A stretch of DNA of 64,000 bases from Deinococcaceae bacterium (GCA_046327935.1 JAXLXL010000001.1:1152386-1216385), one strand, 5' to 3'. Counted from the first letter of the stretch, positions 3,606-58,554 are shown. Notes: a model not told the origin generated them from the letters alone. Numbers and translations: made by a program.

Positions 3606-3941
3606 GTTCCAATTCTAGTGGCCAAAGCCAAAAATTGGGGATGTCGCGAGGGTGAAAGTTGTTCGGTTCACTAGGATTGAAGCTTTAGGGTAAAGTTAAA
3701 AAACACGCTTCTGTGTTGAAGCGATCACTTCAATGCCTGGCAAACGTAATGCCCTGATTCTACCCATACCCGTTGGTAGCTGTAAGTACTGAGACTCCTT
3801 ACGCGGTCAAGCTGCACGGTATGTTGTTCTGGCCAAGATGGCGAAAAAACAAAATCTGTCGTTCTGGATGCTATTTACGAAAAAATAAGTTTCCGCGCTG
3901 CTGAGCGTGTTTTCAATATCTATCGTCATACCATTTATGGC

Positions 3942-18546: not shown

Positions 18547-18574
18547 ACCCACAACCCACAGGAGATCCGCTGTG

Positions 18575-18823
18575 ATGAAAATGTATACGACCACCTGGTG
18601 CACGGATTGCATGGCCGTCAAACGTATTTTGATCAAAAAAGGCATTTTATTTGAAGAAATTGACATTGAAAAGGATGAGACAGCTGCGGATCATGTGATG
18701 CGTATCAATGGTGGGAAACGCAGTGTTCCGACCATTGTGTGTGGAGATGAAGTTGTCGGTTTATCGCCTGTTTCCAGGGAACGTTTGGAAGGTTTTTTAT
18801 CGAGGTGTGGGTTCACACCGTAA
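18575..18823 (+). CDS. Glutaredoxin-like protein (copy 2)
   Basis: Protein identical to copy 1. Same RBS. Confidence 0.6.
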   Translation: MKMYTTTWCTDCMAVKRILIKKGILFEEIDIEKDETAADHVMRINGGKRSVPTIVCGDEVVGLSPVSRERLEGFLSRCGFTP

Positions 18824-19696
18824 CACAACAAAAGCCAATCGGCAGACAGGATCAGCTTTTGGGTTTATCCAATGCCGTGTGCCTTCTTTGATGCCACTGC
18901 TGATGGGTTTTGGTGTTGGGTCACTCTGTTCCGTGTTTTGTGATGGACCGAGTGCGATGCATACCCACAGAAAAGCTGGCAATACTGCTGTGATTTGCAT
19001 TGCCAAAATGTACCCAGAGCGTAATTTTAGAGCAATCTATATTATTTTTAGATATCTTAGAGAGTGTATGAACCTGTCTGAAATCTAAGATGCTTAGACT
19101 GGATATTGCGTCTCTTTCGAGGCCCTTTTGGGTCTTTTTAACTAGAGAAATACCAGTGAGGGAAATCATGGGGCATACTGTTTCATTTAGAACCATTATC
19201 AAGTATATGGAAGATGGCATTGATCATTTCTTCTAGGGATACGAGAATCAATGGTCAGTCAAGCAGGTGTAAAGATGGCGTACAAGTTATACTACGGCAT
19301 ATTTTATAATTATTGGGAATTTTTGAGAGCTTAATAAAAGTAGTTTCAAAAAGTTTCTTTTTCTATGAATATCGCTTTCTAAATTTCAAGGAAATTAGGG
19401 AATTTCCCGTAAGGTATTGTTGTTTCTAAGTTGTATGTGTTTACACAAAATGAAGAAAAGAAGTACCATGCATTCCTGCGGCCTCTTTTATGAAAATACC
19501 ATTCGTTATATTTTTAAACTCTTCTTTTTCTGGGATCTAGGCTGTGATTTACTGTCATATACAAGGCTGATCACACTGCATTTAAAAATAAAATATCCTA
19601 AAAGTAGATGAACTTGCCGTAAAACGCAGTCTGTTATATGTCCTTATTATATTTCCTCCCTGGATAAATTTATACAGACTCTAATTGATGTGAATT

Positions 19697-20248
19697 TCAT
19701 TGCTCTATTTGCTCAAATCGTTCACTTCTATTGAGTTTTTCAAGTGCTTCTTTGCAAGAATCTGCAACGAAATTAAGTTTTCTATCGACACTTGCGAATA
19801 CCCTACCCATATCATCAATCAAAAGCACAACCATTCCACACTCGTCGACACCAACTGGACACAGACGGCGTTGAATCATACACTCATCTTCTTCTAATCT
19901 AAATTCAACATAGTGATCTGCCGCGTGTAGAACGTCGAATTTGTATCTCTTCTGGGTATTGACGTTTTTACCTGGAAAATCAACAGTTAAATAATTGTAA
20001 GAACATGCAAATTTTATCGCAAATTCATTAAAATAAACACCGAGCGAAGATAATTTATGGGCAATTTCTGAAACATCAACACATCGATTGGCAGTCCATC
20101 CTGATTTATAAAGTGTCTCATCCAATGATGGCCAGACTTCTCTCCTATTCGCAATTTTTTGTCCCTTTAGTAAAAATTGAATTTCAGCCAGCTCTTGCTC
20201 AATTTCCTGTTGAAGCTGTGCTATCAAACGATTCCCTTCTGTATCCAT
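19697..20248 (-). CDS. Hypothetical protein encoded in a low-GC islet
   Basis: 183-aa ORF with much lower GC than its surroundings. No motif recognised. Confidence 0.4.
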   Translation of the reverse strand: MDTEGNRLIAQLQQEIEQELAEIQFLLKGQKIANRREVWPSLDETLYKSGWTANRCVDVSEIAHKLSSLGVYFNEFAIKFACSYNYLTVDFPGKNVNTQKRYKFDVLHAADHYVEFRLEEDECMIQRRLCPVGVDECGMVVLLIDDMGRVFASVDRKLNFVADSCKEALEKLNRSERFEQIEQ

Positions 20249-22028: not shown

Positions 22029-23087
22029 ATGCCCAATGCTGTCAGTATCGAAAACATTCGCAATGCACTGTCTACGGTCCAAGACCCTGAGCTTCACCGC
22101 GATTTGGTGTCTTTGGGTATGGTTGAAACCATTGATTTACAGGATAACCACGTTCACATCAAGATCAATTTGACGACACCCGCTTGTCCCATGAAGGCAA
22201 CCATCGAAAAAGACATTCAGAACGCAGTTATGGCGCTTGGTGTTTCATCTGTCCGGGTTGCATTTGGGAGCACCGTTCGGGCGGTCGGTCAACCTGCACT
22301 CGAGGGTATCCAGCACATTGTGGTCGTGGGTTCTGGCAAAGGTGGCGTTGGAAAATCCTCTGTGGCCGTCAACTTGGCAGCGTCTTTGGCCGCGAGTGGG
22401 GCAAAAGTGGGGCTCATGGACGGGGACATCTACGGTCCAAGTGTGGCCCACATGTTGGGTGAATCAGACGCCCGAATTCGTGCCACAGCGGACCGAAAAA
22501 TGATCCCTTTGGAAAAACACGGCTTCAAATTTGTCAGTATGGCCAATTTGGTTGCTCCCGGACAGGCGCTGGTGTGGCGAGGTCCCATGTTGCATTCGGC
22601 CATCCAGCAATTCCTCCGGGATGTGGCGTGGGGAGAATTGGACTACCTGATCGTCGATTTGCCTCCAGGAACCGGCGACGTTCAACTTTCCCTTTCGACC
22701 AGTGCGCGTATTTCCGGTGCCGTCATCGTCACGACCCCTCAGGATGTCGCCCTCATCGATGCCAGTCGGGCCGTCGATATGTTTCGCAAAAACAACGTGC
22801 CTATCTTGGGCATGGTCGAAAATATGAGCTATTTTGTCGCGCCAGATACGGGCGTTCGGTACGATATCTTCGGCCAAGGTGGAGCCAAAGCAGAGGCTGA
22901 ACGCTTGGGTCTGTTTTTCTTGGGGCAGATTCCACTCGACATTCCAGCCCGAGAAGCGGGTGATGCGGGCATTCCGGTTGTGTTGTCCAGTCCGCAAGGT
23001 TTTGCAGCGCAGGCCCTTTTGGGAATTGCGGGCAGTTTGGCTGGACAAATCAGTGTCCAAAGTCTCGCTGTTTTGCCGATGGTTTGA
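22029..23087 (+). CDS. apbC: Mrp/NBP35 family Fe-S cluster carrier ATPase
   Basis: N-terminal DUF59-like region and a deviant Walker A GKGGVGKSS. Conserved CxxC absent or atypical, not checked. Confidence 0.85.
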   Translation: MPNAVSIENIRNALSTVQDPELHRDLVSLGMVETIDLQDNHVHIKINLTTPACPMKATIEKDIQNAVMALGVSSVRVAFGSTVRAVGQPALEGIQHIVVVGSGKGGVGKSSVAVNLAASLAASGAKVGLMDGDIYGPSVAHMLGESDARIRATADRKMIPLEKHGFKFVSMANLVAPGQALVWRGPMLHSAIQQFLRDVAWGELDYLIVDLPPGTGDVQLSLSTSARISGAVIVTTPQDVALIDASRAVDMFRKNNVPILGMVENMSYFVAPDTGVRYDIFGQGGAKAEAERLGLFFLGQIPLDIPAREAGDAGIPVVLSSPQGFAAQALLGIAGSLAGQISVQSLAVLPMV

Positions 23088-23731: not shown

Positions 23732-23952
23732 ATTGGGCAAGGGTATTACCCTTATCTACGTACATCAAAAACAAGCATCGGATCATTTTTCAATTCGCAC
23801 CAAAATGATAAAATTTAGCAAACGCGTCTTGGGCGCGTATTTTTTGTTATTTTTGTGAAGTTGGTTGGCTTCTCTGTGACATTTGCTTTGGAATTTCGCA
23901 TACAATGGGGGAACATATTCCCGTGCGTCCTCGGGTTTGGGGAGAAGAACAG

Positions 23953-24621
23953 ATGCCTGAATTTTTTGCAGCTTTATCGGGTGAAGCGCGCGCCGATTTG
24001 CGGTCTGCCTTGCGTCCTCAGCAATTTGAACGCGGTGCGTTGCTCTTTCACACCGAGGATCGTGCTGAGACACTCTATTTTCTGCATGCGGGTCACGTGC
24101 GCTTGTACCGTTTGGGCAGTGCTGCGCGTGAGGTCACTGTGGGTGTGCTTGACCCTGGATACGTCCTGGGAGAAATGGCCCTTTTGGGTGGGGATTACGG
24201 TCTCTATGCTGAGGCTTTGGATGGGGTTCAGGCTTCGGCCATTGGTGTGGAAACCTGGAAACAGCTTCTCAAAAAACATCCCACACTGAATTTTGCCTTC
24301 AGTCGCCAGATCGTTCGGCAGGCTCAGGGGCAACAGACCCGACTCATCCATCTCGTCTTTATGGAGGTTTCGCAGCGGTTGGCCTTGGTGCTTTTGCGAT
24401 TGGCCAATCAAAAGTGTGACATTGTCGCGGGCAAGCGCAGGCTGAGTGGACGCGTGTCCCATCAGGATCTTGCGCATTTGGCGGGCTCTACGCGGGAGAC
24501 CATTACCAAACTCCTTGGAGAATTCAAAGAACAGGGCATCATCGAACTGGGTTACCGTAGAATCATTCTTGTGGATGAAGAGAGACTCCAAGAAATGACG
24601 GTGACACCGCTACCTCTATGA
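23953..24621 (+). CDS. Crp/Fnr family transcriptional regulator
   Basis: cNMP-binding beta-roll followed by C-terminal HTH RETITKLLGEFKEQGII. GGAGAAG RBS before ATG 23953. The ORF-track start at 23905 is upstream. Confidence 0.75.
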   Translation: MPEFFAALSGEARADLRSALRPQQFERGALLFHTEDRAETLYFLHAGHVRLYRLGSAAREVTVGVLDPGYVLGEMALLGGDYGLYAEALDGVQASAIGVETWKQLLKKHPTLNFAFSRQIVRQAQGQQTRLIHLVFMEVSQRLALVLLRLANQKCDIVAGKRRLSGRVSHQDLAHLAGSTRETITKLLGEFKEQGIIELGYRRIILVDEERLQEMTVTPLPL

Positions 24622-26168
24622 ACCGAAATGCCAGTGTTGCAAGTGGATTTTTAACCGGAGATTTACAAGATTTGTACAGACATTCCCCCAGGAATTTTTC
24701 GCAAACACAGGCGCCTCCTCCCATTGATCGCGCTCGGTTGGCGGGTGCATTGGAAAAATACCACCGCGCCCTTGGGTTGTGGACGCCCGGGGTCTCAAAA
24801 TCGCTCGAACGCCTGAGGCATCCAGCGTCCCGTGTGGTCATCGCCGGACAGCAGGCGGGACTTTTGGGTGGACCTGCCCTGACCGTACACAAAGCCGTCG
24901 ATGCGGTGTTGCTCGCCCGACAGTTGAGCACCGAGGATCGTCCTGTGATTCCTGTATTTTGGGTTGCCAGCCAAGACCATGACACGCAAGAGATCGCTCA
25001 AACGACCCTTATGGACAGCGAAGAGCGTTTTTTCGATTTGAGTTTGCCTTTTGCCGCCGAACATCCCGTCGGACGGATTCTGCACCAAAAGCAGTGGGTC
25101 ACGCGCATTTTGTCTGCACTGGAAGACTTTCAGGCGCCACAGGCGTTTAAGCGTCAAGTCTTTGATTGGATTCTCGAAAGCCACAGTGGAATTGACCGTT
25201 ACGTCGATGGCTTTGTTCGCCTCATTGCGTCACAGCTCAGCGCCTTAGAGTTGCTTTACGTTGACCCACTGCATCCGGAATTGGTCACACTGTTTGACGA
25301 AGCCTTACTGGACGAGCTCGAGGATCCACTCACTGGTCCACGTCACATCGAAGAGGCCGCGCAAATTTTGGTTCAGCGTGGTTATAAACCCCAATTGCGT
25401 CGTCCAAAAGGCTCGACCAATCTCTTTTTGGAAGGCCAGGACGGACGTCGCCGCCTTCTCAAATACGAGGCAAAAACCTTTTATGCCGATCGAAGTTACA
25501 CCCAGCAACAGCTCCGACAAACACTTGTGGAACGCCCAGGATGCTTGACTCCCGCGGCCGGACTTCGTCCCATTCTTCAAGACAAGGTTTTTCCAACTTT
25601 GGCCGTTGTGCTCGGACCCGGTGAAACTGGATACTTTGCCCAACTCAAGGATGTCTATCCCCTGCATGGTTTGGAACAGCCTGTGATTTGGCCCCGGTTG
25701 ACGGTGACTTGGCTGGAACCGCCTGTCGTTCGCATGCTGCAAAAGTACGGGTTTACGGCCCATGCGTTCCAGTCCAATCCCAATGGCGTGTTCGAGCGCA
25801 CCCTCATGGAACAGTCCGGTTGGGAAGACCGCTTTGACCGCCATCAGCGCAATCTGGCGGATCTCCTTTGCGAAATGACAGAAGATGTGAACTGTTTTGA
25901 TGTTTCGTTGCTCAGGCCACTCGAGCGTGCACGCAAACACAGCGAGGAAACGTTGCGGCGTCTCGAACGCAGTATCACCCAATCCCTTATGCGCAAGGAC
26001 GCCGATGCGCAAATCCATTTTTCCCGCCTCAAACGCCATTTGCTTCCACATGGTGTTCCACAGGAGCGCCAAATCAATTTTCTCAGCTTTACGCTCAAAC
26101 ATGGAACTGTTCCACTTGAACGTTTGCTTCAGCAACATCCCGGCCAATCCCTCGAGATGGCCTTGTGA
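24618..26168 (+). CDS. bshC: Bacillithiol biosynthesis cysteine-adding enzyme BshC (YllA family)
   Basis: 516 aa, the length and architecture of BshC. Conserved GPGE-x-YW-type segment VLGPGETGYFAQ. ATGA overlap with the upstream gene. Confidence 0.6.
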   Translation: MNRNASVASGFLTGDLQDLYRHSPRNFSQTQAPPPIDRARLAGALEKYHRALGLWTPGVSKSLERLRHPASRVVIAGQQAGLLGGPALTVHKAVDAVLLARQLSTEDRPVIPVFWVASQDHDTQEIAQTTLMDSEERFFDLSLPFAAEHPVGRILHQKQWVTRILSALEDFQAPQAFKRQVFDWILESHSGIDRYVDGFVRLIASQLSALELLYVDPLHPELVTLFDEALLDELEDPLTGPRHIEEAAQILVQRGYKPQLRRPKGSTNLFLEGQDGRRRLLKYEAKTFYADRSYTQQQLRQTLVERPGCLTPAAGLRPILQDKVFPTLAVVLGPGETGYFAQLKDVYPLHGLEQPVIWPRLTVTWLEPPVVRMLQKYGFTAHAFQSNPNGVFERTLMEQSGWEDRFDRHQRNLADLLCEMTEDVNCFDVSLLRPLERARKHSEETLRRLERSITQSLMRKDADAQIHFSRLKRHLLPHGVPQERQINFLSFTLKHGTVPLERLLQQHPGQSLEMAL

Positions 26169-27557: not shown

Positions 27558-27714
27558 GATTGTTTCTCCTTCTTTCGTGGTTACACGAAGCGGTCTCCGT
27601 TGGGAAACGCGAGCGTCGGCATAAAGCAAAGCAAAAGTGCCGCGCAAAAGCTTGGCAAACCAAGCCTTTAAACTCTAGCCCACCTGATGCCGAAATTGCA
27701 AATACACTGGTGGT

Positions 27715-29307
27715 GTGTCTGTGATTTTAGATTCCTTAGGGCCCTATACAAACCGGCGGGTGCTGCTTGCCCTTTCCGGCGGTTCAGACTCGGTGGGATT
27801 GCTCCGAGGTCTTTTGGCTGTCGGTGCAGATGTGAGGGCCGCCCACTTTGAGCACCGAAATATCGTTTCCAAATCGGGTGCTGTGGCCGACGACCCGACG
27901 TTTGTCGCTCAGATCTGCGCTGAACTGGGTGTTCCTCTGGCGGTTCAGGGTGCAGATGTTCCAGAGATTGCAGCCGTCCGAAAATGGTCGTTGGAAGAGG
28001 CCGGCAGAAGGCTTCGCTACTCTTTTCTGACCCGGGTGGCCAAAGCGGAGCGGATCGACGTGATTTTGACCGCTCACACCCTCCAAGACCAGGCAGAGAC
28101 GGTGTTGCTTCAGTTGTTTCGAGGAACGGCAAAAGCGACGGGGATTCCGCCAAAACGGGGTCATATTGAGCGGCCTTGGCTCGGCGTCGACAAAGGGGAC
28201 ATTCAGGATTATTTGCGCAGCCTCGGGCAGTCCTGGCGGGAAGACCAAACCAACCTCGAAGACCGACAGACGCGCACATGGCTCAGACTTCACGTTCTGC
28301 CAGAAATCAGAAGCCGGTTTCCTCGGGCCGATCACGCCCTCGCACGCTACGCCAGGTTCGCAACACAGGACGAACAGGTCTTTGAAAGGTTGTTCCCAAT
28401 GACGCCCTACACGGATTGGAGGAGCGAGCCACCGGCCATCCAAAGGCGCTTGATTGTCCAGTCTCTTTTGCATCAGAAGGTGCCGTTTGACGCCCAAACA
28501 GTGGATCAACTGGCGGGGTTTCTACACAGCCCCAAGGCAGAACACCTTTTGCTCAAAAAACCGCTCACCGTTCAGATGGGGCAACTCTGGTGGGATGTTC
28601 CAGACTGTCCCAAACCCGATTTTGAATATCCGGAACGTTGGATGTTGCGCCATCGCGAACCGGGTGACACGATTGCGCTTTCGGGCGGGCGGAAAAAACT
28701 GAAAGATGTGCTCATCGACAAAAAAATCCCCCGAACCTGGCGCGATCACCTCTGGGTTCTGGCAGAGGGCCACGACATAAAATGGGTCGGGATTCCCAAA
28801 GGGTATGCCGTGGGGTCATTTGGGAATATAGAATTAAAATCACGTCCTGGACGTTGGTATCCCGAAATGCAGAGGGCACTGGGTTGGGCGCGGCAGGCCA
28901 TGTTGGAGGGCGAGGTGCCTGTGGGTGCAATTGTGACTGCGCAGGATGGCACTGTGGTGGGTGAAGGCTACAACCGATCCAGGGTCCTGGGGGACATGAC
29001 GGAACATGCCGAACTTTGGGCCATCAGGGAAGCGAGCCGGAAAATCGGTCCCTATCTCAAAGGGTGCACACTTGTGGTTTCTTTGGAGCCTTGTCCAATG
29101 TGCTACGGAGCGGCACTCGAGGCGCGCATTGACCGAATTGTGTACGGCGCCGTAAACCCCAAAATGGGCGCTTTGGGTGGCGTGGTAGACCTGGGTAGAT
29201 GTGCTTTTGGACACAAAATGGATGTCGTTCCCCGGGTGTGTGAACGGGAATCGGAGGCTTTGCTCAAAGGGTTTTTCGGTGATCTCAGGTCGCGTTCCAA
29301 GCTGTAA
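27715..29307 (+). CDS. tilS: Fusion protein: tRNA(Ile)-lysidine synthetase TilS plus tRNA adenosine(34) deaminase TadA
   Basis: N-terminal PP-loop LALSGGSDS and TilS C-domain (GDTIALSGGRKKLKDVLIDKKIP). The C-terminal 150 aa is a full CDA domain with HAE (TEHAELWAIR) and SLEPCPMCYGA. One continuous 530-aa ORF. Confidence 0.8.
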   Translation: MSVILDSLGPYTNRRVLLALSGGSDSVGLLRGLLAVGADVRAAHFEHRNIVSKSGAVADDPTFVAQICAELGVPLAVQGADVPEIAAVRKWSLEEAGRRLRYSFLTRVAKAERIDVILTAHTLQDQAETVLLQLFRGTAKATGIPPKRGHIERPWLGVDKGDIQDYLRSLGQSWREDQTNLEDRQTRTWLRLHVLPEIRSRFPRADHALARYARFATQDEQVFERLFPMTPYTDWRSEPPAIQRRLIVQSLLHQKVPFDAQTVDQLAGFLHSPKAEHLLLKKPLTVQMGQLWWDVPDCPKPDFEYPERWMLRHREPGDTIALSGGRKKLKDVLIDKKIPRTWRDHLWVLAEGHDIKWVGIPKGYAVGSFGNIELKSRPGRWYPEMQRALGWARQAMLEGEVPVGAIVTAQDGTVVGEGYNRSRVLGDMTEHAELWAIREASRKIGPYLKGCTLVVSLEPCPMCYGAALEARIDRIVYGAVNPKMGALGGVVDLGRCAFGHKMDVVPRVCERESEALLKGFFGDLRSRSKL

Positions 29308-29326: not shown

Positions 29327-31246
29327 ATGGCCAATGCACATAAGCCAGAGGTTTTCGAACCTCTACTGAATGACCGTTACCGTCTCGAAGATGCCATTGG
29401 AGAAGGGGGCAGCGCTTGTGTGTACCGTGCCTTCGACGTTCACTTGGGTCGCTATGTGGCACTCAAGGTGTTGCATCCCCATGTTGTTGCGACCGACCAA
29501 TTGCGTTTTGAACGTGAAATTCGAGCCCTTGCCCAAATCTCTCACCCGGGTATCGTTTCCATTTTGGATTTTGGTCGGGATGTACAAGGTCGGCTGTTTT
29601 TGGTCATGCCGCTCTTGATGGGGGGATCATTTCACGATCTCGGGCCCGTCGAAAATTCCCCCGAACACATCGAGGCTTTTTTGTCTGCTTCGTTCAGGGT
29701 CTTGGACGCACTTTCCTACCTTCACGGGCAGGCCATGGTTCACCGAGACCTCACTCCCCGAAATATTTTGTTTGGGTTGGATGGCTGTCCCCGGCTGATG
29801 GACTTCGGACTCATTCATTTCACAGATGAACTGCAGGAACTGACTCGGACAGGCTACACGTTGGGAACGCCAGAGTACATGGCACCAGAGCAGGCCAAAG
29901 GGGGAGAGGTCAGTTCTGCGAGTGACATGTACGCCTTCGGTGCGGTGATGTACCGTGTTCTTGTTGGTCGGGTGCCTTTTGAAGGGGACAACGATCAGAG
30001 CGTGCTTTACCAACACGTCTACGAAACCCCAATTGCGCCCATAGAGAGAAACCCAGCGCTGCCCGGTGCCCTGTCGGATGCGATTTTGAGTTTCTTGGAA
30101 AAAGATCCCACCCGGCGTCCTGCGAGTGGAGTAGAAGCATGCAACATCTTGCGTCACGCCCAGCAGCAAATGAAATCTGAACATTTTTGTGGGCAGTACC
30201 GTGGGGGCAGGTCGCGAACGGGCGTCCACTCAGGGGGAATCAAAAACCCCGTTTCTCTTTCATTGGATTGGACGCTCTCTCTCGGCACCGAACTCGCTTG
30301 GCCGGGTGCCTTGGTCGCCAATCCAGACCTCTTGGTCTTGGGTGGCAGAAACCGAAAATTGCACTTGATTTCTCCGTCCGGGTGTTCTTTTAAAACCATA
30401 GAGGCTGACGATGAAATTACAGCCCCAGCACTCCTTTCTCCGAATCGGGTTACCTTTGGAACGTGGAAGGGTACAGTGTATCACTGCGACCTTTTGGGAA
30501 ATACCTTGTGGAAATGCGCTGTGGGTGACGAAATACATTCGACCCCATTGGACTGGAAAGGTGCCCTCATTGTCCCGTCTCGACGTGGGGAAATCCATTC
30601 ACTGGACGTTGAAACAGGCCAAAGCCGGTGGGTGTATGCAGCCGAAGGTCCGGTGGTGTCTTCGCCGCTCGTTTGGAAAAACACGCTCATTGTGGCCGAC
30701 GAACAGGGATGGATCCATGGCATTGAGGCACACACAGGTCAGTTTTTGTGGAAAATCGAGGTCGGATCTGTCAATGCAACACCAGCAATGGCTTTCTGGA
30801 AAGGCATTCCGGTTCTCGTCGTGCCCTGTTGGTCTGGCGAAGTGCATGCCCTTGCGTGTGACACCCGAGGACACGTCCTCATGCCCAAGGAAGATCCCCT
30901 GTTGTGGACTTTCGATTTGGGTGGGGCGGTGTGGGGAAGTCCTGCCCTTTACAACGGCCATGTGTACATCGGTTCTTGGTCTGGTTGTATCCACGCCCTG
31001 TCTTTGGACAGCGGAGACGAACTCTGGAATGCCAATCTGGACAGCTGTTTGACCTCCAGTCCTATTTTTTCTGAAGGTGTCGTGTATCAGGCGAGTGAAG
31101 GGGGAAAAGTGTGTGCCTTTCGTGCACAAGATGGACGCATGTTGTGGTCCCATTCGAGCGAAACTGGAATACAAACCACACCACTGATCGCACACCAAAA
31201 GCTCTACGTGGCGTCAATGGACGGTGTGGTTCATGCATTTAAGTGA
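29327..31246 (+). CDS. Hanks-type Ser/Thr protein kinase with C-terminal PQQ-like beta-propeller repeats
   Basis: GEGGSACVYRA, VALKVL, HRDLTPRN, DFGL and PEYMAPEQ. C-terminal repeated W-x-hydrophobic blades typical of BamB/PQQ propellers. Confidence 0.8.
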   Translation: MANAHKPEVFEPLLNDRYRLEDAIGEGGSACVYRAFDVHLGRYVALKVLHPHVVATDQLRFEREIRALAQISHPGIVSILDFGRDVQGRLFLVMPLLMGGSFHDLGPVENSPEHIEAFLSASFRVLDALSYLHGQAMVHRDLTPRNILFGLDGCPRLMDFGLIHFTDELQELTRTGYTLGTPEYMAPEQAKGGEVSSASDMYAFGAVMYRVLVGRVPFEGDNDQSVLYQHVYETPIAPIERNPALPGALSDAILSFLEKDPTRRPASGVEACNILRHAQQQMKSEHFCGQYRGGRSRTGVHSGGIKNPVSLSLDWTLSLGTELAWPGALVANPDLLVLGGRNRKLHLISPSGCSFKTIEADDEITAPALLSPNRVTFGTWKGTVYHCDLLGNTLWKCAVGDEIHSTPLDWKGALIVPSRRGEIHSLDVETGQSRWVYAAEGPVVSSPLVWKNTLIVADEQGWIHGIEAHTGQFLWKIEVGSVNATPAMAFWKGIPVLVVPCWSGEVHALACDTRGHVLMPKEDPLLWTFDLGGAVWGSPALYNGHVYIGSWSGCIHALSLDSGDELWNANLDSCLTSSPIFSEGVVYQASEGGKVCAFRAQDGRMLWSHSSETGIQTTPLIAHQKLYVASMDGVVHAFK

Positions 31247-32762
31247 TCTTCTTGGAATCAATTTTGATGAGGTCGCTCAAGATGCCTTCGAGGCCACCGT
31301 GAACGGTAATGGAGTCGATCTTCTCTGTGACGCGCTCGAGTGTTTCCAATTCCTTGAGCCGAAGCGCAACAGGGTTGTCTTCCATCACCCGGGCGGTGTT
31401 GAGCAAGCTGCGTGTGGCAGCGGTTTCTTCGCGGCGACGGATGACGTTGGCTTGGGCGGATTTTTCTGCTTCCACGACCCGAGACAAGATGGTTTTCATT
31501 TCACCGGGCAAAATGATGTCTTTTACGCCAACCGATTCCAGGGCGATCCCAAGGCCAATCGCCTTTTCGGAGACAAACTCAAAAATAAACGGATCCAAAA
31601 ACCCCTTGTTGTCCAGAATCTCATCCAATGTGCGGGTTCCAACGGCAGCCCTGAGGGCAAATTGCAGTTCTTTGTACAGGTACGCTTCGATGTCGACCAA
31701 CTTGGACGTGACCAGCAGAGGATCAACAATGCGGTACCCAGCTGTCAGGTTGAGCCGGACCGAGATCTTGTCTTTGGTCAGAATCTCTTGGCCACTGACC
31801 TCCAGGATTTGCAACCTCAAATCGATTACCCGACTGCGCAAATGGCGGCCCACCTTCCAAAATGCGTGTCCCCCGACTGCCAGGGATTCGTGCAATTTTC
31901 CATCACAGTATAACAATCCGATATGGTTTTCGGAAACTTCAACATATTCCATAAAAGTAGCAAGTGGATGGCCCTTGAGGGTGACGGCGATCTCGTGGGG
32001 AACTCGAAAATGCTCAGATATATCGATGGTTTCAAGGCGTGTCACATTGTCTTTGAGGTACATTCCACTTTGGGTCGGTGCCACAATGCTGGCAAAGGCT
32101 GTGCCTCGGTAAACCAGCGTCAGTTCATGGGCTTTCATTTCGACGTAAACAAAATGCTCGAGCCACTCAGGGTAGAGAGACAAAATGACAATTTGTGTTT
32201 CTTTTGGAATGGACACAGTGGTATGTAGTGTCTGGACTCCGATCGCTTCCAAGTCCTTCCAGTAGAGCTTTCGCTCACCGGGACGAACAATATCTCGCAG
32301 TGTTTTGTCCGCATCAACCAGTGCAAATGCACTTTGGCCAGGATGAACATCCACGAAGGATAACAGCCAATGTGTATTTTGGTTGTTGTATAGGTCGTGT
32401 CTCGCAGGAAGGGTCAGACCACCCTGGATGCTGAGCCGTTCAAAGGTGAGTGGGGCTGTTCCTTTCCAAAAAATGGCCTGCGTTTGTGGGCCAATAATAT
32501 CGATAATCTGGCCTTTTCGACGCACAATGGTGATTTCAAGGGCCTGCGTTTCAACTTTTTCGTAGTATTGTGACACTTTTGTCTTATTCTGATTCCACAA
32601 AATGTCGACCAAATCGCCTTCAACCCTGGGTTTTCTCGTGTCAAAAATCTGGACTGTTCCCCGAACGGACTGGCGTCCTTCTGGCAGAATGGATAAAAGA
32701 CGTTTGTTTTCAAAAACCAGCGCCAGTTCATAGGGCTGTACAGTTATTTTCTTCATGAACAT
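31239..32762 (-). CDS. SPFH/band-7 domain protein with large N-terminal domain
   Basis: C-terminal ILTKDKISVRLNLTAGYRIVDP...RAAVGTRTLDEIL...GIALESVGVKDIILPGE stomatin/prohibitin-like core. Start MFMKKI at 32762 with an AAGG RBS. Confidence 0.7.
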   Translation of the reverse strand: MFMKKITVQPYELALVFENKRLLSILPEGRQSVRGTVQIFDTRKPRVEGDLVDILWNQNKTKVSQYYEKVETQALEITIVRRKGQIIDIIGPQTQAIFWKGTAPLTFERLSIQGGLTLPARHDLYNNQNTHWLLSFVDVHPGQSAFALVDADKTLRDIVRPGERKLYWKDLEAIGVQTLHTTVSIPKETQIVILSLYPEWLEHFVYVEMKAHELTLVYRGTAFASIVAPTQSGMYLKDNVTRLETIDISEHFRVPHEIAVTLKGHPLATFMEYVEVSENHIGLLYCDGKLHESLAVGGHAFWKVGRHLRSRVIDLRLQILEVSGQEILTKDKISVRLNLTAGYRIVDPLLVTSKLVDIEAYLYKELQFALRAAVGTRTLDEILDNKGFLDPFIFEFVSEKAIGLGIALESVGVKDIILPGEMKTILSRVVEAEKSAQANVIRRREETAATRSLLNTARVMEDNPVALRLKELETLERVTEKIDSITVHGGLEGILSDLIKIDSKKIT

Positions 32763-33004
32763 TGCTGTTAACCTTTCTTTTCTCAATAGAGAATGGACTG
32801 CCTTGACCGACCCCAAAGTGATGTGGGAGAAAACGTGCACTGACGATATGCCAAATACCAAAGTACCCAAACTGCACGGCCTTTTTGGCTCAGGCAGGCA
32901 CGAAAGCGGACCCAATCTCGCAGACAAAACCCCGAAGGCAAACGGTGCAGAAAACGCTGTGGTTTGCAGGTCTTGACAGCCCATTCCAAAAAACGGTGGC
33001 CTTT

Positions 33005-33210
33005 CGACCAAGAGGATTCGAACCTCACAACAAACATGCTGTTGTTTAACCAAAGTGACCAAAGTGAAATGCTCTCACCGCTGAGCTAGCCTCGCTTTTA
33101 CGCAAGACAAAGGATTCGAACCTTTGACCCCTTCATTTTCCAAGCGTTCAAAGCTTGTTGGTTGAAACCCTCACTACGGAGGATTTCCAGTTTGAACTTT
33201 CCAAGCGTTC
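33005..33210 (-). other. Cluster of tRNA-derived fragments and short direct repeats (probable integration scar)
   Basis: Two GGTTCGAATCC T-loop/3'-half motifs on the minus strand, one with a GGGTC variable region like tRNA-Pro. Also a tRNA 5'-half-like segment (GCGAGGCTAGCTCAGCGGTGAGAGC) with a 9-nt internal tandem duplication. No acceptor-stem complementarity, so no intact tRNA. 13-bp direct repeat TTTCCAAGCGTTC at about 33136-33150 and 33198-33210. Confidence 0.3.
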
Positions 33211-33631
33211 TCGGTATACCCCAGGGAAACCAAAGTCCCAGGGCACCAGTGAGGCATACAGAACCTCAACCGCTGTTACTGGCCTCGAAGGTTCTTTGAA
33301 ATTCTAGGGGAAACATGTGATGTGTGTATGTGAGAAATGGCCTAGAGAGTGTCCTGCAAATATTTGTTGGGTTTATTTTGAATTGGAGATGGTGTTGAGG
33401 GAGGTGACAGCTGAGGATACCTGCGGTTGGTTCAAACATTCCTTTTGGAAAAGATCATGGACCACTGGATTGGGCGTGGCTGGTTTTCTAAAGGGTCTAA
33501 TTTGAGATGAAAAAACGTTGCTGTATGATGTGCAGAACGAAATTGAGATGAATTTGAAAGATGCGATTTCCGCCTTCAGTCTTTGAGGTTTCATCCATTG
33601 AAATGGCATTTTACAGCGGGTTTCATAATTA

Positions 33632-34165
33632 TTAGGAATTAACAAAGGACATAAAATGCTTTTTATATCCTTCTATATTTTCAGGAGTTACAGCCTCTAC
33701 GCATTCTTGAATGATATTTTCTATGTTATCTATTGTTTTACTTGGATATCTTCTTATTCCATTCTTTATTTTCGAAATCGATTCTTCTATTGGATTCAAT
33801 TCTGGACTATAGGGAGGTATATATAGTATTTCTATTCCATTCTCTTCAAATAAATCTTTTACAGATTTCGTTTTATGTACGCTTAAATTATCCATTACTA
33901 TTTTTCTAATACCAATCTTTTTGATTTCTTCGCAAAATATCTCTATATATTTTAAAAATACGTCAGTATTCATTGTTCCATCAATTATAAACGTGCACAC
34001 CATTTTCATATGTAGAATGAGTATTACATTTCTCTTTTTCCTTCTTTTTGATCTATTTATTTTGCAATATAGTCTTTTTTTATGACTCCATCCATAGAGG
34101 GTTTCACAATCTATATGTACGCCAAATTCATCTAAAAATCCAATTTCATTTAAATCACTTTTCAA
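33632..34165 (-). CDS. IS630 transposase DDE catalytic part (OrfB)
   Basis: DNLSVHKT...YIPPYSPELNPIEE DDE motif region. The frame is open upstream to the A8 tract, +1 relative to OrfA. Confidence 0.8.
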   Translation of the reverse strand: MKSDLNEIGFLDEFGVHIDCETLYGWSHKKRLYCKINRSKRRKKRNVILILHMKMVCTFIIDGTMNTDVFLKYIEIFCEEIKKIGIRKIVMDNLSVHKTKSVKDLFEENGIEILYIPPYSPELNPIEESISKIKNGIRRYPSKTIDNIENIIQECVEAVTPENIEGYKKHFMSFVNS

Positions 34166-34217
34166 AATCTCTTCAATAAATGCCTCTCTTTTTATTATAT
34201 TTGATGGTGTTTCTTTT

Positions 34218-34580
34218 TCAAGTGCGATATAAGTTTTTTTTATACTTTATCCCCGCACGTTGAAACGCTCTATACATTGTCGCTTTTTTCACGGTCACAC
34301 CATACATTTTCTCCCATTCTTGACACGCTTTTTCTAAGGTAATATCCGGCATACTTTGTACCATTGCTCTTAGATTTTCAAAGTCTGCAATATCTATACG
34401 GGGTGGCTTTTTAGTTCCTCTTTTTTTAGGTTCCAATACATTGTTGTCATCAAGCTGCAAGTATCGTCCAACAGCCGAGGAAGAAACATTATATATTTCT
34501 GCAACCTCTTTTATTGTGTATCCTTCATAGTATTTTTCAACTATTCTTTTTCTAAGATCTAAACTATAAGTTACTGGCAT
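34218..34580 (-). CDS. IS630 transposase N-terminal HTH part (OrfA)
   Basis: HTH of the IS630/Tc1 family. Ends at a T8/A8 tract. Confidence 0.8.
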   Translation of the reverse strand: MPVTYSLDLRKRIVEKYYEGYTIKEVAEIYNVSSSAVGRYLQLDDNNVLEPKKRGTKKPPRIDIADFENLRAMVQSMPDITLEKACQEWEKMYGVTVKKATMYRAFQRAGIKYKKNLYRT

Positions 34581-34727
34581 ACATAGATTTTACCACATTA
34601 CATTCAAAAATAAAATATCCCCAAAATTAATAAACTTGCTGTAACGGCCAAAATAATGTACCTTTTTAATTCTTCATCTTGCAAACTGGTGTATCGATCT
34701 TACTTTGATCCGAAATTTGATTTACGG

Positions 34728-35405
34728 CTAAAGATCGGTCATATAGGGGAATGCAAAGCTTGCGACCAGTCCGTAAACGATGTCGAAAACGAGCAAAAGA
34801 GCCATCCAAGACAGAAAGGCTTGGGGTTCTGAGTGTCCACTGATCAGTGAAATGGCATTCACAGCACCCAAAACCACGGGAACCACAACCGGAAACATCA
34901 AAATGGGGAGCAGCGCCTCTTTGGCACGCAGCGTCACTGTCAATGCCGCGTAAAAGGTTGAGACGATTGAAAACCCGAGAACGCCGAGCAAGACGGTCAG
35001 GAAAAAGTACACAATGTCCAGCGGCCCAGCCGGCGAAAAAAATGGATAGATGATCCAGGAAATGGGTGAGGCAATGGCGGCCAAAATGGACATCAAGATG
35101 AAATTGGCCAGCATTTTCCCGAGATAAACGTGACTTCTGTGTGTGGGATAAAGCATCAATTGTTCGAGGGCTTCACTTTCCGCTTCCCGATTCCAAGAAC
35201 GCCCGGCTGCCAAAACAGAGGAAAAGGCAATCGCCGTCCACAGAATCCCGGGACCGGCCAAACTGAGGACACTGGAGTGGTTTCCCAAAGCAAAGCCGAG
35301 GATGAGCATCACAAGTGCTGAAAAAAACGATACATTCGAGAAAATATCCTTGGAACGCCCTTCCAGATGCAGATCCTTAAGTGCCACTTTCCAAAGGGTG
35401 TTCAT
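34728..35405 (-). CDS. ccmB: Heme exporter protein CcmB
   Basis: About 225 aa, 6-TM CcmB-like. ATGA overlap with ccmA. Confidence 0.7.
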   Translation of the reverse strand: MNTLWKVALKDLHLEGRSKDIFSNVSFFSALVMLILGFALGNHSSVLSLAGPGILWTAIAFSSVLAAGRSWNREAESEALEQLMLYPTHRSHVYLGKMLANFILMSILAAIASPISWIIYPFFSPAGPLDIVYFFLTVLLGVLGFSIVSTFYAALTVTLRAKEALLPILMFPVVVPVVLGAVNAISLISGHSEPQAFLSWMALLLVFDIVYGLVASFAFPYMTDL

Positions 35406-36025
35406 GTGAGCCGTCCATTGTTTAGCGTGACAAAATGCGTTCCCAAGGCAGATGCCCACTGCGGTTCGTGACTGGAAATGACCAAAGTTCGCCCTTTCTC
35501 GCGTTCTCCGATGAGCAAATCCTGGGCCAGTTGCTTTCCATCTGTATCCAAATTGGCGAAAGGCTCGTCCAGCAGGAGCAATGGACTGGGAACAAGAAGC
35601 ATCCGGCCAAGAACCGCCCGTTTGCGCATGCCGGCACTGAGTTCTCGGACCCTTTTGTGTCGGGCATGAGAGAGCCCTACTTTATCGAGGCACTGCGGAA
35701 TGCCTGTCGTGCCGACGTTGTACATGGACGTGGCAAATTTGAGGTTTTCTTCGACGGTGAGATCCGCGTACAGGCCCTGTTGGTGACCGATGAAGTGTGC
35801 GTGTTCTCGAACGGCCCCCCCATCAAAGAGATCGTATCCAAAGATTCGACCCTCTCCAGAATTGGCCTTGAGGCTGCCGGCCAGGATGCGCAGGAGTGTG
35901 GTTTTTCCGCTGCCGTTGCTTCCGTACAAAACCAGGCTGTCACCACGCCGCAAGTCAAAATTGACGGAGGTGAGCACCCAATGGCGGCCGAACCGTTTGG
36001 CAATGTCGCGAAGCTCCAAGGCCAT
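35402..36025 (-). CDS. ccmA: Heme ABC exporter ATP-binding protein CcmA
   Basis: Walker A GSNGSGKTT, signature LSAGMRKR, Walker B LLLDEPFANLD. The internal start MALELRD is preferred. Confidence 0.8.
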   Translation of the reverse strand: MALELRDIAKRFGRHWVLTSVNFDLRRGDSLVLYGSNGSGKTTLLRILAGSLKANSGEGRIFGYDLFDGGAVREHAHFIGHQQGLYADLTVEENLKFATSMYNVGTTGIPQCLDKVGLSHARHKRVRELSAGMRKRAVLGRMLLVPSPLLLLDEPFANLDTDGKQLAQDLLIGEREKGRTLVISSHEPQWASALGTHFVTLNNGRLT

Positions 36026-36713: not shown

Positions 36714-38136
36714 AACACTTCATTCTAACGCCAGTTGGACGTCTTTTTTGAGAGCGAAAAAGCGACTCACCCAACAGGGCCAACAGCGTGGCAAGGGATC
36801 CCAAGCCGAACATATCTCCAAAAGCCACAAAGGGTGTCCAGATTTTTTGTCCACTGATTGCCATAAGCGAGGCATTTTGGCCCGGTAGCATTTCTGTTAG
36901 GGGATTGCCCAAAGGGTCGTAAGCTGCACTGGGTCCCGACTGGGACGCGTGAATGACGTAGCGTCCCGTTGATACCGCCCGAAACCGACTGACATCGCGG
37001 TGCAGTTTGGGTATCGGCGTTCCCTGGGCAAACGTGGTGTTGGTGAGCATGACCAATAGGTCGCTTTGGGGGGCCAATTCTCGAGACAGCTGTTCCGAGA
37101 GCGTATCCCAGCAAATTTGGATGCCCAGTAAGAATCCAGCCACCTTGGGAAGACCTTGTGCTTTTGCGGCCAGGATATCCGACTCAAAAAAAGGCGCAGG
37201 AACCCTCTTGTTGTATGCGACGCTCAAACTGTGTGTGTCCCACAAAAAAGCGCTGTTGTACAGACGTTTTGACAGCGCTGTACGGTGATATCCACCCGCC
37301 AATACGGGTGGCAGATGCTCAAATCCCGCGAGGATATCTGCATACACCTGTGGGTCCGACGCATCTGCCGGTATGGACGATTCGGGCCATAAAATCAATT
37401 GGGCGTGCATCTGGGCTGCATATTTGGAGAGTTTTCGGTAGCGTTTGATCAGGTTTCTGCGCGTTTCGGGCCACAAATAGGCTTTTCGGTGTTCTTCTGG
37501 TGCGATTGCCCCTTGGACAACCGCAAGTCTGAGCTGTTTCTGGATTGGGGCTTTCTTTGTCTGTGAGATTGCTTGTGGCAAACATGTGGCCACCACCAGA
37601 AGACCCAATCCCAACAGCATAGGTTGAATTTTTCGGGTACGCACACCCTGGTACACGCAACCATTGAACACCAGAACGAGCCATGCGACACCGTGAACGC
37701 CACTCCAAAAGGCCGCTTTGAGCAGTGGAGAATCGGCTTGTGCATAGCCAATCGAAATGGGATTGGACCACGATCCGAAGTTGCCGAGTGCGTTTAGGGT
37801 TTCACATGCCAGCCAAAGCAGCGCAAACGCCCAAGCCGTCTGCATTTTTTCCCGAAAGAAGACGACACCCAATCCAACCAGGCCGTAGCCCAAACCGAGG
37901 GCCAAAATCAACAGGGCCATGAGGGTGGGTTGCAGGTGAAATGCCCCACCGTAAGCCATCACCCAGATGGGTAAGGACGCGCAGTAGGTGAGGTAAAATC
38001 CCATTCTGAGGCTTTGCGTTTTTTCCAGTGCCCAGAGCAGCGGAAGAAAGGCGATCCAGGCAAGATAGGGACATGTGACAGATCCTGCAAGCAGTGTCCC
38101 AGAAAGCCATGGTGCAATCCACTGACTTGGTTTCAT
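36157..38136 (-). CDS. lnt: Apolipoprotein N-acyltransferase Lnt, with 3' end apparently frameshifted
   Basis: N-terminal polytopic domain plus CN-hydrolase domain with catalytic E (LILWPESS), K (YNKRVPAPF) and C (IQICWDTL). The genuine C-terminus (hydrophobic helix then RSQKRR) lies at about 36700. The ORF runs a further 180 aa out of frame across ccdA. Confidence 0.7.
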   Translation of the reverse strand: MKPSQWIAPWLSGTLLAGSVTCPYLAWIAFLPLLWALEKTQSLRMGFYLTYCASLPIWVMAYGGAFHLQPTLMALLILALGLGYGLVGLGVVFFREKMQTAWAFALLWLACETLNALGNFGSWSNPISIGYAQADSPLLKAAFWSGVHGVAWLVLVFNGCVYQGVRTRKIQPMLLGLGLLVVATCLPQAISQTKKAPIQKQLRLAVVQGAIAPEEHRKAYLWPETRRNLIKRYRKLSKYAAQMHAQLILWPESSIPADASDPQVYADILAGFEHLPPVLAGGYHRTALSKRLYNSAFLWDTHSLSVAYNKRVPAPFFESDILAAKAQGLPKVAGFLLGIQICWDTLSEQLSRELAPQSDLLVMLTNTTFAQGTPIPKLHRDVSRFRAVSTGRYVIHASQSGPSAAYDPLGNPLTEMLPGQNASLMAISGQKIWTPFVAFGDMFGLGSLATLLALLGESLFRSQKRRPTGVRMKCCGCLFQCRSICRCALFFVSLCVAPRAFVLGCFGRTKNRPSRARVCPGIQFGFHCSGRQRQCIGPFPDVSTVLAHPDERHSDRVLRPQPVGHFAHSFSHTRPPNEPPKSLRLRSHCPGRGVCLGMDTVHWPHAGQYFESRHDTRPTQTRRSSTHPVRSGFGHSLFADGTVVAQYEPEVDVALHGNH

Positions 38137-39137
38137 AGGGATTCAAGGCCATCCATGCTCTGCGCGGCTTTGATGGTTTTTTTGGAACCGGTTTTGAGGT
38201 TAAGTATCGTTAGGTCCTGACCACCCACTTGGCTTCCGACGTAGATTTGGTCTTTATGCACGACAATCTGATCGGAAGAACTGATCGTCTGTGAAAAAGA
38301 AAACAGCTTCTTTGGACTGAATGTTTTAAGGTCGGCGAAAAAGACTGTTTTTCCATCTTCCGATAAAAAATACAATCCTTTTTCATTCATGTGAAATATT
38401 TCGTACCCGTAAATACCCTTTGGTAGAAGTTTCTTACTTTTTTCTTCTAAATTCAAGTCCATTCTGGAAAGATAAAAATTTTTATCTTTTTGAATTTCTC
38501 TATTCACAGCATACAAATCACCTTTAAATTCATATATGCTTCCTATTGACCTACCTGGAAATACTTTCAATTTTGTCGGCTTATTTGACCTTTCATCGAT
38601 CTTGATGATCCCTATTGATCCATCCTCCATGTTTATTGTTTGGTAATAGCTCCCCTTTATTGAAAGATATGATCGAGTCCTCTTTAAGCCACTGTCAATT
38701 TGAGGGAAATACTGTTTAAGGTTGATTACAGTTGCTTTCCCATTCTGGATGACTGCAACTTTGGGACCTGTGGCACAGCCGACAAAGACTTTGCCCGTTG
38801 TTGGACTGACACTCGGGTGAACACCTTGAAATCCTGGAATAAAGTAATCTTTGACGGCATTGCTCTTGAGATCAATGCAAGAAATTGTCTCTGTTTCTTG
38901 CGTACTTTTTGGGCGTGCGTAGGGATTGTAGGCCACACCGGTGATCCAAAGGCAATGGGAATCGACTGCAGCGCCTTGGGTGAGTTTGATTCTGGAATGG
39001 CGAATGGTACGAATGAGACGGCCTTGTGCGTCAAACCACTTGAAGGCAGACTGATCCATTGCAGCGTCGTCTTGCCAATTCACCACATCCCGAACCAAGA
39101 CAGTTGGAGTTCTGTGAGAATCTGTATGGACATTCAT
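38133..39137 (-). CDS. Beta-propeller-like protein, paralog 2 (no signal peptide)
   Basis: Shares a near-identical roughly 165-aa N-terminal block and a 45-aa C-terminal block with the upstream paralog. The central part is divergent and AT-rich. YVTN/PQQ-like blade motifs (GKVFVGCATGPKVAVI). Confidence 0.6.
   Translation of the reverse strand: MNVHTDSHRTPTVLVRDVVNWQDDAAMDQSAFKWFDAQGRLIRTIRHSRIKLTQGAAVDSHCLWITGVAYNPYARPKSTQETETISCIDLKSNAVKDYFIPGFQGVHPSVSPTTGKVFVGCATGPKVAVIQNGKATVINLKQYFPQIDSGLKRTRSYLSIKGSYYQTINMEDGSIGIIKIDERSNKPTKLKVFPGRSIGSIYEFKGDLYAVNREIQKDKNFYLSRMDLNLEEKSKKLLPKGIYGYEIFHMNEKGLYFLSEDGKTVFFADLKTFSPKKLFSFSQTISSSDQIVVHKDQIYVGSQVGGQDLTILNLKTGSKKTIKAAQSMDGLESL
38612..39110. repeat. 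Conserved 5' block of the paralog pair (copy in paralog 2). Its partner is at about 39607-40102.
   Basis: About 0.5 kb at roughly 97% identity between the two genes, GC-normal. Antisense ORFs 38700-39221 and 39695-40156 are mirror images of this repeat. Confidence 0.7.
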
Positions 39138-51500: not shown

Positions 51501-51719
51501 GCAGCCAGCAAACGTGTCGTGTCCATCAAAGACGGCCTCACGGAAATCGAAGTGGCGTTTGCCTACACGGCTTTGGATTACGATGCCGCGACCCTCAAGC
51601 AGTTTCCCCACAAGGTCACGCTGCAGCAGTTTCCACCGTCGTTTCGGTTGAGCAAAAAAGGACTTCAACCCGAAGCGTATCCACAGGTGTTGATGGACGT
51701 TCTTCGTGCGTTTGGGTGA
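48513..51719 (+). CDS. mfd: Transcription-repair coupling factor Mfd
   Basis: Superfamily-2 helicase motifs: [16 protein letters not shown] and [15 protein letters not shown] motif region. 1068 aa. Confidence 0.85.
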
Positions 51720-51726
51720 TGGTTTC

Positions 51727-52260
51727 TCAGGTTTCGATGGAGGTGATAAACGAGAGGTTTCGGTCAAACTGAGACCGGTCGAGGCCATATCCGTAGACAA
51801 AGGCATCTGGAATGGTAAACCCAAGGTAATCGATTGGCACTTCAATTTTCCTTCGGCTGGGCTTGCTGAGCAGTGCGGCAACCTTGAGTGAGGCGGGCAT
51901 GCGGCCCTGCAAATAACCCAAGAGGTAGTGCATGGTGATGCCCGTGTCCACGATGTCTTCAACCAAGATGATGTGCCGGTCGGCCAAGGGGTAACTCAGG
52001 TCCTTGGTCAATCGGACTTCGCCACTGGACGTCTTGCTGCTTCCGTAGCTGGAAACGGCCAAAAAGTCAACGCTGACAGGAAGGTCGAGTGCCCGAACCA
52101 AATCGGCGTGAAAAAGCCAAGCGCCGTTTAAAACGCAAATCAAGTGTGGGGAAAGACCTGCATAATCTCGATTGATCTGTTCGCCCAGTTCGGCAATTCT
52201 GTTTTGAACGTGTTCTTTGGTGATCTGGATACTGCCATTTCCAGGGAGATGAATGGTCAT
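51727..52260 (-). CDS. hpt: Hypoxanthine phosphoribosyltransferase
   Basis: PRPP-binding motif IILVEDIVDTGITM. The internal ATG at 52260 is preferred. Confidence 0.85.
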   Translation of the reverse strand: MTIHLPGNGSIQITKEHVQNRIAELGEQINRDYAGLSPHLICVLNGAWLFHADLVRALDLPVSVDFLAVSSYGSSKTSSGEVRLTKDLSYPLADRHIILVEDIVDTGITMHYLLGYLQGRMPASLKVAALLSKPSRRKIEVPIDYLGFTIPDAFVYGYGLDRSQFDRNLSFITSIET

Positions 52261-52280
52261 GGGTCCAAGATTAGCACGTC

Positions 52281-52994
52281 TCAACCCGAGGCGCACACCT
52301 CAAAGGGAAGCAAAAACGGCTTAAAATTCAGGGCATCTGCAGCCACAAAGTACAGGGGAATGCCTTCCCAGTGACTGATGAGACGCTCACCTGAAACCCC
52401 GTGCAAATGGCCATAAACGACACACTTCGGCTCAAACTCTTCGATCAGGTCTGTGAATCCAGTCCGTCGACCATTCATGGCTGTGGGCGGGTAATGGAGC
52501 AGCAGGACGTCTTGAGGTGCGCCCAGACGTTTCGCAGCCTCTAGGCTCAACCGAAGGCGTTGGATCTCACGTTTGTAGATTTTGTCATCCTCGAGACTGA
52601 ACCCTTCGGAATCTGGACAACTCCAACCCCTTGAGCCGCAAAAGGTCGTGTCGTGGAATCGGAGGGCGTCATTTTGCAGCGCGAACATGTTGGGTGGCAG
52701 TGCTTGCCTCAATTTTCCGATGCTGGACCACCAATAATCGTGGTTTCCCCGCAAGATGATCTTTTGTCCTGGAAGGGCTGCAATATCGAGAAGATCCGGC
52801 AGCGCCTCTTCCAAGTGGGTTGCCCAGGAAATGTCTCCAGGAATGAGCACAATGTCATCTGAAGCAATATCTGCCTCCAGCCACCGGTCAAAGAACACCT
52901 GTGGGTGTCCGAGCCAATTTCTCCCAAAAATATCCATAGGTTTTGGGTTGACACGGGACAGGTGGGCATCGGCGATGGCAAAGATTCTTGACAT
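52281..52994 (-). CDS. Metallophosphoesterase (calcineurin-like)
   Basis: IADAH, GDIS and GNHD motifs. Confidence 0.7.
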
Positions 52995-58090: not shown

Positions 58091-58554
58091 TCCACACAAG
58101 AAAAACGGTTTTACCGGAGATTTGACAAGGGGCACAGGAGCATCTAAACGCGGCATCGGTTTTGTGGGTTGAAACCGTCGCTTTGGGTTCTCCTGTTTTA
58201 AATGGCGTTCGGATTGCTGGATTGGTGCACAACACTTCATCTTTTTACCCCACTTACGCATCTTTTAAGAATGCATTTCTGTTGCCTTTCATAGATCAAT
58301 CCTCAATGGCTGGGTGATCCCAAAGATACATTAAACTCAGAATGGATCTTCATTTTTCACGAGATTGAGGGTTGATTTACATTCTTCAGGCAAAAAAAGT
58401 AGAAAGGTGTTATGCGTGGCGTCTGTCCAACCCACCACATGGAACTTTTGTGTACAGAAAGCAGTCTATTTTCACAACCCCCCAAAGGGTGGTATTTTCC
58501 AATGAAGCCTTGATGAATAATTAATTGTAGGTCTCCCTTGACCTAGAGGTCCAT

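Follow-up and report, generated by a model that had tools for sequence, protein, structure and literature searches.

A stretch of 64,000 nucleotides from a Deinococcaceae bacterium (GCA_046327935.1, JAXLXL010000001.1:1152386-1216385), referred to as the window, encodes a single protein in which a tRNA lysidine synthetase (TilS) is followed by a TadA-type tRNA adenosine deaminase. The tilS-tadA open reading frame (ORF) harbors neither an internal stop nor a change of frame, as seen in both the ORF listing and the direct translation, and a sequence-only reading that had proposed one uninterrupted ORF of 530 amino acids is thereby borne out. The TilS part comprises residues 1 to ~362 and is connected by a 13-residue linker to a deaminase of ~145 residues. 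Direct translation places the SGGSDS motif of the TilS half at 27775-27792 (residues 21-26) and the HAE and PCPMC motifs of the TadA half at the positions listed in Table 1. Because a GGTGG sequence at 27709-27713 is found 7 nucleotides upstream of the second in-frame GTG (27721), that codon, two codons past the ORF start, is probably the real start, which amounts to a trivial shift. A scan for promoters and terminators around the gene returned no signal above chance.

TilS adenylates C34 of tRNA-Ile2(CAU) and then substitutes lysine, and AUA is thus read as isoleucine. The N-terminal domain of the window protein is recognized as a PP-loop domain by the Pfam model PF01171 (residues 16-191, 134 bits against a cutoff of 27) and as TilS by the NCBIfam equivalog TIGR02432, TilS_N (130.3 bits against 93.6). 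The C-terminal part of this half matches TIGR02433, TilS_C, with 46.2 bits against a cutoff of 20.2 over profile positions 2-46 of 47, and PF11734, also TilS_C, with 28.6 bits against 22 (residues 311-359), the latter covering only profile positions 3-53 of 74. The TilS assigned to the locus on the strength of its PP-loop motif and C-terminal domain is thus supported by models for both ends. The full-length proteobacterial TilS model NF007942 gives 86.9 against a cutoff of 606, a shortfall in keeping with the distance of this lineage. The best sequence matches of this half in the PDB are the TilS entries 3a2k (2e-30), 1wy5, and 1ni5. In Foldseek comparisons, it matches Aquifex aeolicus TilS (1wy5/2e21) with a target-normalized template-modelling score (TMt) of 0.75-0.79 and the Geobacillus kaustophilus TilS-tRNA structure (3a2k) over 445 aligned columns. 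At the sequence level, the TilS_C region aligns with residues 383-437 of G. kaustophilus TilS.

Conservation was assessed in a family set of 285 full-length fused proteins, of which 98 are left after removal of those more than 72% identical. Within the TilS half, S21, G22, G23, D25, S26, H121, D125, E128, and T129 are invariant in all 98 homologues, as are R153, P154, D177, N180, and R187. These residues make up the PP-loop together with the HxxDxxET, RP, and DxxN...R stretches. Between the catalytic and C-terminal domains lie a connecting helix and a compact middle domain in the position of the TilS CTD1, modelled with helices at residues 205-226, 240-253, and 260-269 and a strand segment at 276-292. 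The CTD1 model PF09179 has no match at E<=0.01 in the window protein, and a few Thermaceae homologues do carry it. At residues 48-60 (27856-27894), a 4-residue insertion past the invariant H47 is shared by the window protein and P0002, its nearest relative; both are devoid of the Leu-Arg pair that over 90% of family members have at this spot.

TadA deaminates A34 of tRNA-Arg(ACG) to inosine. The C-terminal half of the window protein exceeds the Pfam cutoffs for PF00383, the CDA profile (residues 385-478, 79.4 bits against 25), and PF14437 (residues 385-525, 85.6 bits against 27), and the C-terminal domain accordingly passes the CDA profile threshold that had been named as its test. Its best sequence matches in the PDB are all TadA (7cph, 2e-26; 2b3j, 6e-26; 1z3a, 1e-24). 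TadA chains as a group range from 2e-26 to 6e-19, and guanine and cytosine deaminases are found at 1e-13 or weaker. The Foldseek comparison with the Staphylococcus aureus TadA-RNA structure (2b3j) gives a TMt of 0.92, a root-mean-square deviation (rmsd) of 1.0 Å, and 40% identity. All 98 homologues have N420, H431, E433, C460, and C463, with N420 occupying the position of N46 in E. coli TadA. In the RNA-binding C-terminal helix, 97 of them retain F521 and 96 retain R525. With both halves above Pfam domain cutoffs and matched to solved TilS and TadA structures, the assignment of the two domains stands. The invariance of the catalytic residues in the 98 homologues shows that purifying selection on both active sites is strong, and this speaks against either domain being degenerate or serving a structural role only.

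An AlphaFold2 model of the full chain, for which the alignment of the 98 homologues served as input, has a mean predicted local distance difference test (pLDDT) of 93.2 and a predicted template-modelling score (pTM) of 0.85. Confidence is about 88-96 in the middle domain and is low only at residues 365-377, in agreement with an earlier estimate of the domain junction at about 28830. Between the equivalents of G359 and M385, the linker ranges from 7 to 39 residues among the homologues and varies in sequence as well. A Foldseek search of the PDB returned no solved chain spanning both halves.

Table 1. Features of the tilS-tadA fusion gene, in window coordinates (aa, amino acid residues).
Feature	Residues	Position	Strand	Basis or remark
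tilS-tadA fusion ORF	530 aa	27715..29307	+	GTG start; stop 29305-29307 included
TilS catalytic N-terminal PP-loop ATP pyrophosphatase domain	aa 16-191	27760..28287	+	PF01171, TIGR02432
Connecting helix and compact middle domain, TilS CTD1 position	aa ~205-300	28327..28614	+	AlphaFold2
TilS C-terminal CTD2-type tRNA-binding domain	aa 310-359	28642..28791	+	TIGR02433, PF11734
Flexible inter-domain linker (AVGSFGNIELKSR)	aa 365-377	28807..28845	+	sole stretch with pLDDT <50
TadA-type tRNA adenosine deaminase domain	aa 385-529	28867..29301	+	PF00383, PF14437
HAE, zinc/catalytic motif	aa 431-433	29005-29013	+
PCPMC, zinc/catalytic motif	aa 459-463	29089-29103	+
Asn481	aa 481	29155-29157	+	position aligned with E. 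coli TadA D108
TadA C-terminal helix	aa 510-529		+	AlphaFold2

The fusion extends across a whole phylum. The window protein is 100% identical to the NCBI entry ‘MAG: tRNA lysidine(34) synthetase TilS [Deinococcaceae bacterium]’ (P0001; MAG, metagenome-assembled genome), and the best 120 database matches all combine a PP-loop with a deaminase in 503-600 residues. An exhaustive search of 1.84 billion representative proteins yields ~43 clusters at 50% identity that harbor both halves, below which the scores drop to standalone TilS proteins of 430-480 residues. Every named carrier belongs to the phylum Deinococcota. These are many Deinococcus species (D. maricopensis among them), Deinobacterium chartae, and MAGs labelled ‘Deinococcales’ or ‘Deinococcota’, some of them marine and among them a Tara Oceans lineage with the annotation COG0037+COG0590, together with Calidithermus, Meiothermus, Allomeiothermus silvanus, Marinithermus hydrothermalis, Oceanithermus, and many Thermus species. 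The gene is a single ORF in the complete isolate genomes of D. radiodurans (CP150840.1 and CP031500.1, the protein being indexed in 301 assembly-collection blocks) and of Thermus (AP025593.1). Many of the orthologues bear the UniRef label ‘Multifunctional fusion protein’. The fusion is therefore already known in the sense that its exact sequence and two-domain nature are recorded in databases, and the architecture, which the sequence-only reading had called unusual, is so among bacteria in general but is standard within Deinococcota. The searchable literature, including TilS domain studies, TadA surveys, a deaminase-fold review, Thermus/Deinococcus comparative genomics, and tRNA-modification reviews, does not describe a TilS-TadA fusion. 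DR1207, a candidate locus tag for the D. radiodurans gene, was dropped, as PMC4401554 has DR1207 as a gene ‘of unknown function’.

The single TadA-only match, a protein of 174 residues (P0173), was rejected as a fragment on a 606-bp contig, its cluster-mate having 534 residues. A TilS-only Thermaceae protein of 441 residues (P0432) was rejected as the product of a frameshift near 3921-4044 in a Thermus-like metagenomic contig (L085, 3001-4526), on which the TadA half continues in a different frame; the case illustrates that an assembly error can make a fused gene look unfused. Another TilS-only Thermaceae match (P0431, 450 residues) lies on a 2,527-bp contig. The fusion is thus the standard form in both Deinococcota orders and apparently universal among the relatives retrieved.

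The simplest reading of this distribution is a single fusion event that preceded the split of Deinococcales and Thermales and has been kept since. In a neighbor-joining tree built from the 143 alignment columns of the short TadA domain, the fused proteins do not come out as a clade (2 of 100 bootstraps). This result is uninformative and is not evidence for several origins; because the tree is not resolved, the argument for a single origin is one from shared architecture and taxonomy.

The fused protein is probably a bifunctional housekeeping enzyme of Deinococcota, forming lysidine at C34 (k2C34) of tRNA-Ile(CAU) and inosine at position 34 (I34) of tRNA-Arg(ACG). The TilS half would perform the ATP-dependent adenylation of C34 at the PP-loop, after which lysine would replace the activated group to give lysidine on tRNA-Ile2(CAU). 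The TadA half is predicted to carry out the zinc-dependent hydrolytic deamination of A34 to inosine, such that one tRNA-Arg would read CGU, CGC, and CGA. In the window, these codons are used at 11.3, 16.7, and 9.3 per 1000, respectively, and AUA at 5.1 per 1000. The two catalytic modules most likely act independently on the one chain: their substrates are different tRNAs, so that there would be no intermediate to channel, and the linker is short, variable, and of low confidence. The fusion most likely fixes 1:1 co-expression. TadA is an obligate homodimer, and its dimerization could possibly bring two TilS units together. The proposal that covalent linkage couples the formation of C34-lysidine to that of A34-inosine is speculation. 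Neither a second tilS- or tadA-like sequence nor a tRNA-Arg gene is found within the window, whose only tRNA genes are those for Ser(GGA) and Pro(CGG).

Several observations weigh against a conventional bifunctional enzyme, most of them concerning the divergence of the deaminase. The TadA equivalog NF008113 is the best-scoring deaminase model, yet it gives 107.3 bits with the full protein and 111.5 bits with the TadA domain alone (28846-29304), and thus falls short of the cutoff of 150. When six standalone TadAs of Bacillota, Pseudomonadota, and Chloroflexota are run against this model, they score 135-191, five of them passing (155-191) and one reaching 135. The domain had been described as a complete TadA, which holds for the CDA fold, HAE, PCPMC, and the C-terminal helix but not for the equivalog cutoff, and because of this shortfall its A34 deaminase activity is put forward as a predicted one. 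A generic TadA profile, used with cross-validation, gives 209±15 bits for standalone TadAs held out from it and 157±20 for the fused domains, about 50 bits less. In addition, the position of E. coli D108 is occupied by asparagine (Asn481 of the window protein) in 97 of the 98 fused proteins. Among 51 standalone TadAs from other phyla, taken as an outgroup from the matches listed in a contig profile search with the family alignment, it is aspartate in 42, glutamate in 6, and asparagine in 3. Most of the matches listed in that search are standalone TilS or TadA of other phyla, and they tell nothing about the distribution of the fusion. In E. coli TadA, D108 contacts the ribose of the residue that precedes A34; with asparagine in its place, the substrate contacts of the fused TadA may differ. 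Furthermore, Deinococcota genomes may hold a standalone tadA, or have no tRNA-Arg(ACG), at loci beyond the window that was searched, and the searchable literature yielded no enzymatic or genetic data on any fused member.

The TadA of the fused proteins is therefore divergent, a mildly new point, and this divergence probably explains why the NCBI pipeline names the protein only TilS. D108N was also the change with which the selection of DNA adenine base editors began. Eukaryotic ADAT2 also carries asparagine at the equivalent position. Because asparagine is present in 3 of the 51 standalone TadAs as well, it is compatible with tRNA A34 editing, and Asn481 is best treated as a candidate lineage signature worth a biochemical look rather than as evidence of a new activity.

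Three readings depart from an authentic fusion of two independent wobble enzymes. Merging of two adjacent genes by an indel or a lost stop would make the single ORF an artefact of MAG assembly or sequencing; the window does stem from such a genome, and one related metagenomic contig is frameshifted in the same gene. However, the architecture is uninterrupted in 285 full-length proteins, including those of the complete D. radiodurans and Thermus isolate genomes, and the alignment is continuous across the junction. A frameshift or stop between the domains is excluded on these grounds, without recourse to reads, and the artefact reading is in practice refuted by the comparison of homologues. It is also quite unlikely that the deaminase has drifted to another or broader substrate (e.g., other A34-containing tRNAs, another position, a nucleobase or nucleoside, or a target with a tolerated 2′-deoxy or 2′-modified neighbor), or that its main role is now to lend TilS a further tRNA-binding or dimerization module. 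The low scores with both TadA profiles and the replacement of the usual aspartate at the D108 position count in favor of such a change. In contrast, the invariant histidine, glutamate, and both cysteines, together with the invariant or near-invariant N420, F521, and R525, argue against an inactive scaffold; the closest sequence and structure matches are all tRNA A34 deaminases, guanine and cytosine deaminases being at least 12 orders of magnitude weaker in E-value; and the same asparagine is found in the few standalone TadAs noted above.

A covalent link with a mechanistic role beyond co-expression is unlikely as well, whether as a dimeric ‘wobble-modification’ complex with a fixed interface or as an arrangement in which the binding of one tRNA controls the activity toward the other. 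Both orders of the phylum have kept the fusion, apparently with no unfused member, the full-chain pTM suggests a defined overall arrangement, and the TilS and TadA families both form homodimers. Nevertheless, the linker is short, is modelled with low confidence, and differs in both length and sequence among homologues, as passive tethers typically do, and the two tRNA substrates share no common intermediate. Hardly to be expected is the more elaborate combination in which Deinococcota have no TilS and no TadA besides the fusion, the asparagine affords relaxed or altered recognition beside A34 and perhaps a wider range of substrates, the Thermus forms are thermostable, and the tether is functionally required for shared dimerization or tRNA handling, as opposed to being a neutral accident. 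The bifunctional housekeeping enzyme with two independent modules is the reading preferred here.

The neighborhood of the gene offers no functional clue, since D. radiodurans and Thermus each have neighbors entirely different from one another and from those in the window. Upstream of tilS-tadA in the window is the divergently oriented rpsT. Downstream, the gene for a Ser/Thr protein kinase with a fused PQQ/BamB-like beta-propeller (29327-31246, + strand) starts 19 nucleotides past the tilS-tadA stop and, given this short distance, is probably co-transcribed with it; neither D. radiodurans nor Thermus shows this pairing with the kinase. The ORF called hpt, which had been placed apart from tilS-tadA at 51.7 kb, is indeed unlinked (51727..52296, − strand), and its product has a phosphoribosyltransferase domain (PF00156, 77.9 bits), while its identity as Hpt is putative. 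This ORF lies directly downstream of mfd (48513-51719, + strand), on the opposite strand.

Elsewhere in the window, bshC, a gene of bacillithiol biosynthesis (24618-26168, + strand), adjoins genes for a Crp-family regulator (23905-24621) and an Mrp/ApbC Fe-S carrier ATPase (22029-23087), and its presence is consistent with a Deinococcota genome that uses bacillithiol. The guanine-cytosine (GC) content falls to 41-45% in 18001-20000, 32001-36000, 38001-40000, and 58001-64000, against a background of about 50-55%, and these blocks may be horizontally acquired islands.

The fusion is real, tidy, and largely ordinary, and its existence is not surprising. It nonetheless represents a ‘Rosetta-stone’ fusion that is clean, old, and stably maintained, joining two wobble enzymes that are normally essential and act on different tRNAs, and it occurs in the model organisms D. 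radiodurans and T. thermophilus, for which no experimental study of it was found in the searchable literature. The NCBI name ‘TilS’ hides the TadA of the phylum, such that a survey by the gene name tadA would score Deinococcota as lacking TadA. The change from aspartate to asparagine and the divergence of the TadA domain are small, testable leads on substrate recognition and, in the Thermus members, on thermostable deaminase scaffolds.

Compared with the Deinococcota TilS-TadA proteins already in databases, the window protein has the same domain order and boundaries at 35-57% identity over the full length, shares all catalytic residues as well as Asn481, and is no different in architecture. 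The closest named species is only ~51% identical, which places the window protein in a deep Deinococcaceae lineage (~51% GC). With the standalone TilS enzymes of type I (3a2k, 1ni5) and type II (1wy5/2e21), it has in common the PP-loop N-domain, the conserved residues, and the long connecting helix, and it harbors the C-terminal TilS_C domain of type I. In contrast to standalone TilS (430-470 residues), its TilS part has ~362 residues, the compact middle domain is shorter than that of type I, and a TadA is appended. The latter resembles standalone TadA (2b3j, 7cph, 1z3a, and A. aeolicus 1wwr) in the CDA fold, HAE, PCxxC, Asn420, and a C-terminal FF..LR helix, with 36-40% identity and an rmsd of about 1 Å, yet it differs in being tethered to TilS, in scoring below the equivalog cutoff, and in having asparagine for aspartate at D108. 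TilS-HPRT fusions exist, and in the other long TilS fusions that receive passing mention in the literature, TilS likewise forms the N-terminal part of a longer protein with housekeeping functions. Unlike in those proteins, the partner here is not a purine-salvage enzyme but a tRNA wobble-modifying enzyme.

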